Positions 6,917 to 7,176 of a stretch of 64,000 nt of DNA are shown in pieces. Each line of letters begins with the position of its first letter. Positions within the stretch are counted from its first letter, which is position 1. The notes under the pieces are model-generated. The model was not told the origin of the DNA, searched no databases, and saw only the letters and a program-made list of their open reading frames with translations. Origin of the DNA: a virus; the IMG/VR virus record IMGVR_UViG_3300025407_001359; one strand, written 5' to 3'. The position numbers and the translations under genes were made by a program.

Positions 6917-7176
6917 AATAAGTTTGGGCATATGGTGTGGCGACCATCTGATACTTGTGGTAGTTTGAGTAGTGGTGTAGCGGAGCAATCCGCACCGGCC
7001 CCGTGGTGCTTTGCACAATATCGGATACTTCCGAGGGTACAGCGAATTTTAAAACCGCGAAAAAGTTGCTAGATACTATGAAAAAGCCCGTGAGGGTGAG
7101 CCATTTGGCCAAGTCGCTCTTGGTTGGCATTGTAGTCCACAGTCGAAAAGCAGATTTTAGTATGCCCAAACTTATT
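6917..7176 (+). ncRNA. Candidate ~260-nt structured ncRNA closed by a perfect 16-bp terminal helix
   Basis: AATAAGTTTGGGCATA(6917-32)/TATGCCCAAACTTATT(7161-76); internal GCAA and GTGA tetraloop hairpins; TAAATA at 6915. Confidence 0.65.

Follow-up and report, generated by a model that had tools for sequence, protein, structure and literature searches.

The stretch at positions 6911-7182 (+) of IMG/VR virus record IMGVR_UViG_3300025407_001359 (the "window", a 64,000-nt stretch of DNA that was analysed as a whole) is a real, stand-alone gene for an elaborately folded non-coding RNA of about 265 nt. The RNA lies between the serine and threonine tRNA genes of uncultured, T4-related jumbo phages, is carried once per genome in the phage contigs examined, and belongs to a family that matches no catalogued RNA family. 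A sequence-only reading had described here an RNA of about 260 nt closed by a perfect 16-bp terminal helix, with several internal hairpins, immediately after tRNA-Ser. This observation was confirmed in the sequence. Its interpretation as a late-transcribed, RNase-P-like RNA was only partly supported: the discrete, highly structured, multibranched RNA closed by a long terminal helix was borne out, whereas the late promoter and the likeness to RNase P were not supported.

The 16-nt perfect inverted repeat (6917-6932/7161-7176) extends to 22 nt with one mismatch, 6911-6932/7161-7182, with 228 nt between the arms. A perfect 16-bp inverted repeat within 300 nt is expected by chance about 0.005 times in 64 kb (64000 x 300 x 4^-16), and the 16-mer has no other copy in the window with fewer than 3 mismatches. 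The element begins 4-10 nt after tRNA-Ser, in a region with 11 tRNA genes. The features of the locus are as follows.

6779-6807 (+): sigma-70-like promoter (TTGACT-17-TAAAAT, 10 of 12, consensus match only) just upstream of tRNA-Ser; the probable promoter of the tRNA-Ser + RNA transcript
6817-6906 (+): tRNA-Ser (GCU), ending in GCCA 4 nt before the RNA gene
6911-7182 (+): the RNA gene (positions 1-264 of covariance model R1, 269 bits, E 1e-77); the family core is 6916-7177
6916-6933 (+): 5' arm of the 18-bp terminal helix P1, extending outward to 6911 in the window; 14 of 18 pairs show compensatory change
7160-7177 (+): 3' arm of P1, extending outward to 7182 in the window
6934-6945 (+): P1a hairpin, a GGU/ACC stem with the near-invariant loop GUGGCG; all 3 pairs covary
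6946-6960 (+): 5' strands of P2 (AUCUG) and P3 (AC-N-U-GUGG), joined by an invariant AU; the N position takes all four Watson-Crick pairs with its partner
7137-7155 (+): 3' strands of P3 (CCAC-N-GU) and P2 (CAGAU), around the conserved internal loop CGAAAAG
6962-7067 (+): P4 domain, with P4a (6962-6966/7063-7067), a GAGUA/GAAA internal loop, P4b (6972-6976/7054-7058; 5 of 5 pairs covary), a variable insert hairpin (6980-6993), and a conserved three-way core (6998-7038) with P5 (7006-7016) and P6 (7021-7034, loop UACU; A-U to G-C in 7 members)
7068-7075 (+): conserved junction strand (GCUAGAUA) between the P4 and P7 domains
7076-7135 (+): P7 domain, with P7 (7076-7079/7132-7135), the P8 hairpin with a GNRA tetraloop (7086-7097; 4 of 4 pairs covary), P9 (7100-7103/7125-7128), and P10, a 5-bp stem with a 7-nt loop of pattern N-U-N-G-C-N-N (7108-7124; 5 of 5 pairs covary)
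7254-8815 (+): facultative two-gene cassette, a DctP-like binding protein (7254-8225) and a peroxiredoxin-fold protein (8297-8815), which is not part of the RNA
8793-8822 (+): sigma-70 promoter of tRNA-Thr (TTGACA-18-TATAAT, 12 of 12)
8832-8906 (+): tRNA-Thr (UGU), the conserved downstream neighbour

All the internal hairpins named in the sequence-only reading are present, and comparison with homologues supports most of them. TGTGG/CCACA is P3, TCGGA-TACT-TCCGA is P6, GCCC-GTGA-GGGT is P8, and GCCAAG/CTTGGT is P10. Of ATGGT/ACCAT, only the inner GGT/ACC (P1a) is supported; the outer A-T pairs belong to P1 and P2. GCGGA-GCAA-TCCGC (6980-6993) is a lineage-specific insert hairpin that most members lack.

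Conserved fold and strand

Homologues were collected from IMG/VR and metagenome contigs by exact searches with an 18-mer at the P1/P1a edge and a 19- to 21-mer around P6. A second pattern built only from P2/P3 and a degenerate P6 pattern gave further members. Seven loci (L002, L004, L009, L014, L020, L026 and L034; L numbers denote the loci retrieved) were set aside on reading as chance matches, including hits in coding sequence, and 28 distinct full-length sequences remained. The covariance model R1 was built from 19 of them. All score 185-303 bits over the full 264 positions, including nine members that were not in the model (185-287 bits); the window was one of the 19, so its own score of 269 bits is partly by construction. 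Identity to the window copy is 57-75%, and the lowest pairwise identity is 53%.

Folding of the single sequence gave z = -2.9 on the + strand and -3.3 on the - strand, which is suggestive but does not pick the strand. RNAalifold on a plain MAFFT alignment predicted 63 pairs, 30 of them with compensatory changes. Helix P4, seen by eye and by a helix scan, was then added. On the MAFFT-only alignment the resulting structure pairs 94% of cells, 36 of 71 pairs change on both sides, and 0 of 500 shuffles reach this; partners slid by 1-3 columns pair only 35-40%. On the 27-member alignment, which is fitted to the model and therefore leans towards it, 97.1% of cells pair, 43 of 73 pairs are compensatory, and every measure beats all 500 shuffles. 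P4a is 82% paired in this alignment, whereas a placement shifted by one column gave 44% on the MAFFT alignment. In an independent mutual-information ranking, pairs of the model take nearly all top places.

The 13-helix fold is a long rod (P1 of 18 bp, then P2 and P3) with a side hairpin P1a, ending in a three-way junction with two branched domains. One arm is the P4 domain, with an internal loop of the AGUA/GAA type and the optional insert hairpin, and the other is the P7 domain. Twenty-eight unpaired positions are invariant, concentrated in junctions and loops; they include the P1a loop GU-GCG, the P6 loop UACU, and parts of the CGAAAAG loop and of the GCUAGAU junction. It should be mentioned that the search patterns lay inside the RNA. 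The invariance of the 19-mer around P6 and of parts of P2/P3 is thus partly built in, and P2, the base of the P5/P6 junction and most of P3 and P6 hardly vary, so that covariation does not test these parts. Pairing of the P6 loop UACU with an upstream AGUA is possible, but both are nearly invariant. Kissing between the P1a and P10 loops, a palindromic P10 loop and CsrA-type GGA loops were considered by eye on the alignment, and none is consistently conserved.

The helices contain 133 G-U/U-G cells against 13 A-C/C-A cells. On the other strand those G-U pairs would be mismatches; in other words, the + strand RNA is the selected product, not the DNA. R1 scores 186 bits on the sense strand and 12 bits on the antisense strand of the homologous locus L053. 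No reading frame stays open across members, and their lengths of 257-278 nt differ by non-multiples of 3. There is one match in each of four phage contigs, two of them about 355 kb and 98-100% complete by CheckV, and no second copy in the window. These results exclude a repeated DNA element and a coding gene. Whether homologues keep only the inverted repeat had been named beforehand as the test that would refute an RNA, and the outcome was clearly in favour of an RNA.

Genomic context and putative expression

The window encodes UvsW-like and DnaB/gp41-like helicases, NrdA, GroEL and other phage genes. A megablast search with its first 20 kb found no close relative among 50,697 cultured phage records, and the helicase is about 46% identical to those of the jumbo phages Atu_ph07 and PA5oct. 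A blastn search of the same records at E<=1e-5 and at E<=10 returned only the tRNA-Ser matches and short chance hits. R1 found nothing in the closest cultured jumbo phages, searched as the whole genomes of PA5oct, Atu_ph07, Phosso, pPa_SNUABM_DT01 and nt-1. The conserved 19-mer gave one hit in 185,579 prokaryote genomes, in an archaeal MAG, with no surrounding similarity.

In nearly every locus the order is tRNA-Ser, RNA, tRNA-Thr(UGU) on one strand. In the tightest cases the RNA follows tRNA-Ser by 0-5 nt and precedes tRNA-Thr by 12-18 nt; in T4 these two tRNA genes are 7 nt apart. The cassette of about 1.6 kb lies between the RNA and tRNA-Thr in about 12 of 28 loci (the window and L003, L005, L010, L015, L016, L019, L030, L035, L038, L039 and L043) and is absent in the rest. 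In L035 a second copy lies between tRNA-Ser and the RNA. The short spacer between the RNA and tRNA-Thr is conserved (about UUAAAUAGUA) in L012, L013, L017, L022, L033, L036, L037 and L040, with the TAAATA core ending about 5-9 nt before the 5' end of tRNA-Thr; it could be a late-type promoter or a processing signal. ARAGORN gives the upstream tRNA-Ser the anticodon ACU, instead of the GCU of the window, in L003, L005, L006, L015, L016, L022, L027, L033, L037, L038 and L039; an A at the first anticodon position is unusual for bacterial-type tRNAs other than tRNA-Arg. In the window, an HNH endonuclease ORF (8914-9375) lies directly after tRNA-Thr, recalling the homing endonuclease segB inside the T4 tRNA cluster.

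In most loci where the RNA is not directly adjacent to an upstream tRNA, a sigma-70 promoter, identified by consensus, sits just before the terminal helix. Promoters of the TTGACA-17/18-TATAAT type (11-12 of 12) end 8-14 nt before the model start in L006, L027, L008, L017, L042 and L053, and weaker or extended -10 forms occur in six more loci. A systematic scan gave TTGCTT-17-TATAAT (9 of 12) in L021, L030 and L032. L053 is a complete unit, in which the promoter and the RNA are followed directly by a GC hairpin and a T-run, that is, an intrinsic terminator. In the window, the promoter-like site at 6779-6807 precedes tRNA-Ser, and the RNA is therefore probably co-transcribed with it. The 12 of 12 promoter lies 10 nt upstream of tRNA-Thr, so single tRNA genes here can have their own strong promoter.

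The late-promoter reading rested on TAAATA at 6915-6920. This motif is absent at that place in the homologues, where tRNA-Ser or a sigma-70 promoter stands instead, and it is not enriched in the window (37 copies against about 41 expected). With T4-like spacing, a start about 6 nt after the motif would fall inside the 5' arm of P1 and remove the conserved helix. The conserved promoters are of the host sigma-70 type, which in T4-type phages drive early transcription. On the other hand, ATAAATA is strand-biased in the window (19 on + against 4 on -) and lies before the DctP-like genes of several loci (about 35 nt; about 32 nt before the ATG in the window), so it may be a real T4-type late-promoter motif of these phages.

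Comparison with known RNAs

Rfam 15 at gathering threshold listed tRNAs only for the whole window and for five divergent loci. A permissive scan of 6700-7400 at E<=10 listed only tRNA and three sub-threshold matches to unrelated families. This covers RNase P, tmRNA, 6S, SRP, Y RNA, GOLLD, ROOL, pRNA, group I introns and the small ribozymes, in so far as Rfam holds models for them. A literature search found no earlier description of this RNA.

Bacterial RNase P RNA also has a long helix pairing its ends, a multibranched interior and a link with tRNA genes, but the resemblance is only a loose one in outline. No RNase P model (RF00010, RF00011, RF00373, RF02357) matched at E<=10, and the conserved P4 strand GGAAAGUC is absent from 6911-7182, as the sequence-only reading had also noted. 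The present RNA is smaller, and no crossing (pseudoknot) pair stood out in the mutual-information scan.

The T4 stable RNAs RNAC and RNAD (species 1 and 2) are likewise encoded inside the tRNA cluster on the tRNA strand and presumably released by tRNA-processing enzymes, and their roles are still unknown (PMC3014915; PMC9697503). With filters off, the only R1 matches touching rnaC or rnaD in T4 68000-76000 are short and score at most 4.4 bits. The T4 RNAs are 139 and 119 nt and sit after tRNA-Arg, and rnaC carries a T-arm-like sequence (GGTTCGAATCC) near its 3' end. In contrast, the present RNA is one molecule of about 265 nt between tRNA-Ser and tRNA-Thr with paired ends, and ARAGORN and the Rfam tRNA model find nothing inside 6911-7182. 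Contiguous rnaD and rnaC together span 264 nt (T4 70908-71171), and rnaD has a hairpin with loop GUCGCUA like P10 of member L036. A split homologue was thus attractive by length, but it was rejected by the model search, and the similarity is treated as coincidence.

GOLLD (RF01998) and ROOL (RF03087) are complex, covariation-supported phage or prophage RNAs, often beside tRNA islands and of unknown function (10.1101/2024.12.08.627333). They are the nearest analogues by habitat, but neither model matched, and they are about 580 and more than 800 nt. Y RNAs (YrlA/YrlB) with Ro60/Rsr are phage- or bacterium-encoded structured RNAs that also have a long stem formed by the two ends, and some are linked to tRNA-like modules. 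However, no Rfam Y RNA hit was obtained, and no TROVE/Ro60 gene (PF05731) was found in the four phage contigs, although control genomes gave hits; a host Ro60 cannot be excluded. Retron msr-msd RNAs are also closed by terminal inverted repeats (a1/a2), but no reverse transcriptase (PF00078) was found in the four contigs, and the interior here is a conserved multi-junction fold, not a long msd hairpin. The complete genomes also encode no RtcB. The absence of these genes argues against a phage-encoded Ro-Y RNA pair and against a retron.

A more distant RNA (L052, about 2040-2350 (-), the same contig as L018) lies in a stretch of about 310 nt between tRNA-Tyr and tRNA-Ala of another phage's array. 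It shares only the central three-way module (CCCCGUG ... AAUAUCGGAUACUUCCGAGGGUA), at 29.7 bits, and may be a second, related RNA class.

Interpretation

The most likely explanation, held with high confidence, is that 6911-7182 (+) is a stand-alone gene for a stable, highly structured RNA of a previously uncatalogued family; that the RNA is excised from the tRNA operon is inferred. Confidence is highest for the gene, its structure, its strand and its family membership. The fold is demonstrated by the comparative analysis, whereas expression, processing, end protection and any binding, assembly or catalysis are inferred. Host-type sigma-70 transcription would make the RNA either as part of the tRNA operon or from its own promoter a few bases before the terminal helix. 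In the operon form, judged from gene order only, the nucleases that mature the flanking tRNAs would free it, by a 3'-end cut after the Ser CCA and by RNase P at the 5' end of tRNA-Thr. Exonucleases would then trim back to the 18-22-bp terminal helix, which would define and protect both ends and is long enough to be an RNase III stem. Such a fold is expected of an RNA that works in trans through its shape, as a protein- or RNA-binding scaffold or decoy, or as a catalyst, among which the data do not discriminate. Given its location, a role in tRNA or translation takeover seems most likely, although any specific function remains tentative at best.

Among the other readings, a ribozyme or tRNA-directed RNA that binds the elbow or 3' end of phage tRNAs and processes, protects or sequesters them is possible but unlikely. 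The size, the invariant unpaired positions and the constant place inside tRNA arrays are consistent with it. The near-invariant P1a loop GUGGCG contains UGGC, the complement of the GCCA 3' end of the adjacent tRNA-Ser, and such pairing is the kind used by T-box RNAs and RNase P. This is pure inference, however: the loop does not vary enough for covariation to bear on the pairing, tRNA-Thr ends in ACCA, and no known ribozyme family matches. If the RNA did act on the phage's own tRNA pool, for example by gripping the GCCA end or shielding tRNAs from host tRNA-cleaving defences, it would be the first tRNA-cluster RNA of a T4-type phage with an assigned mechanism, and would suggest what RNAC and RNAD do.

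Self-assembly into an RNA-only multimer, as for ROOL and GOLLD, is doubtful. The habitat matches and the fold is ornate for its size, but the RNA is two to three times smaller, and inspection of the alignment showed no conserved self-complementary loop that could mediate kissing. Slightly less likely still is a late RNA serving in packaging or carried in virions. T4 RNAC and RNAD are classed as late RNAs (PMC9697503), but the promoter and Rfam evidence above is against this reading, and T4-type packaging motors are not known to use an RNA.

A cis-acting leader (riboswitch, T-box-like element or stabiliser) for the cassette is very unlikely. The cassette follows the RNA directly in about 12 of 28 loci, and no convincing terminator separates them in the window. 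However, in at least 10 loci tRNA-Thr follows within 12-48 nt with no cassette, and the downstream neighbour is tRNA-Thr, a DctP-like gene, other genes or a terminator, depending on the locus. Closure by an 18-bp terminal helix is also not how riboswitch expression platforms are built. A DNA-level element (MITE-like insertion, cruciform or recombination site), suggested by the terminal repeat and the interruption of the Ser-Thr tRNA pair, is effectively refuted by the single copy, the covarying interior helices, the 133:13 ratio and the promoters and terminator that frame the element.

Large RNAs with complex folds that covariation supports are rare, and most of those with known roles are central machines such as RNase P, tmRNA or self-splicing introns. 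The present RNA, found so far only in uncultured phages, is small enough for structure probing and cryo-EM, and its 28 natural variants, secondary-structure model and predicted promoters and ends make the question of its role testable. Because no Rfam model finds it, current annotation pipelines leave this gene blank. It adds a third, unrelated example to the phage RNAs beside tRNA genes whose roles remain open, after T4 RNAC/RNAD and GOLLD/ROOL. The working model is a processed, end-protected, trans-acting RNA that would be linked to the tRNA and translation programme of the phage.
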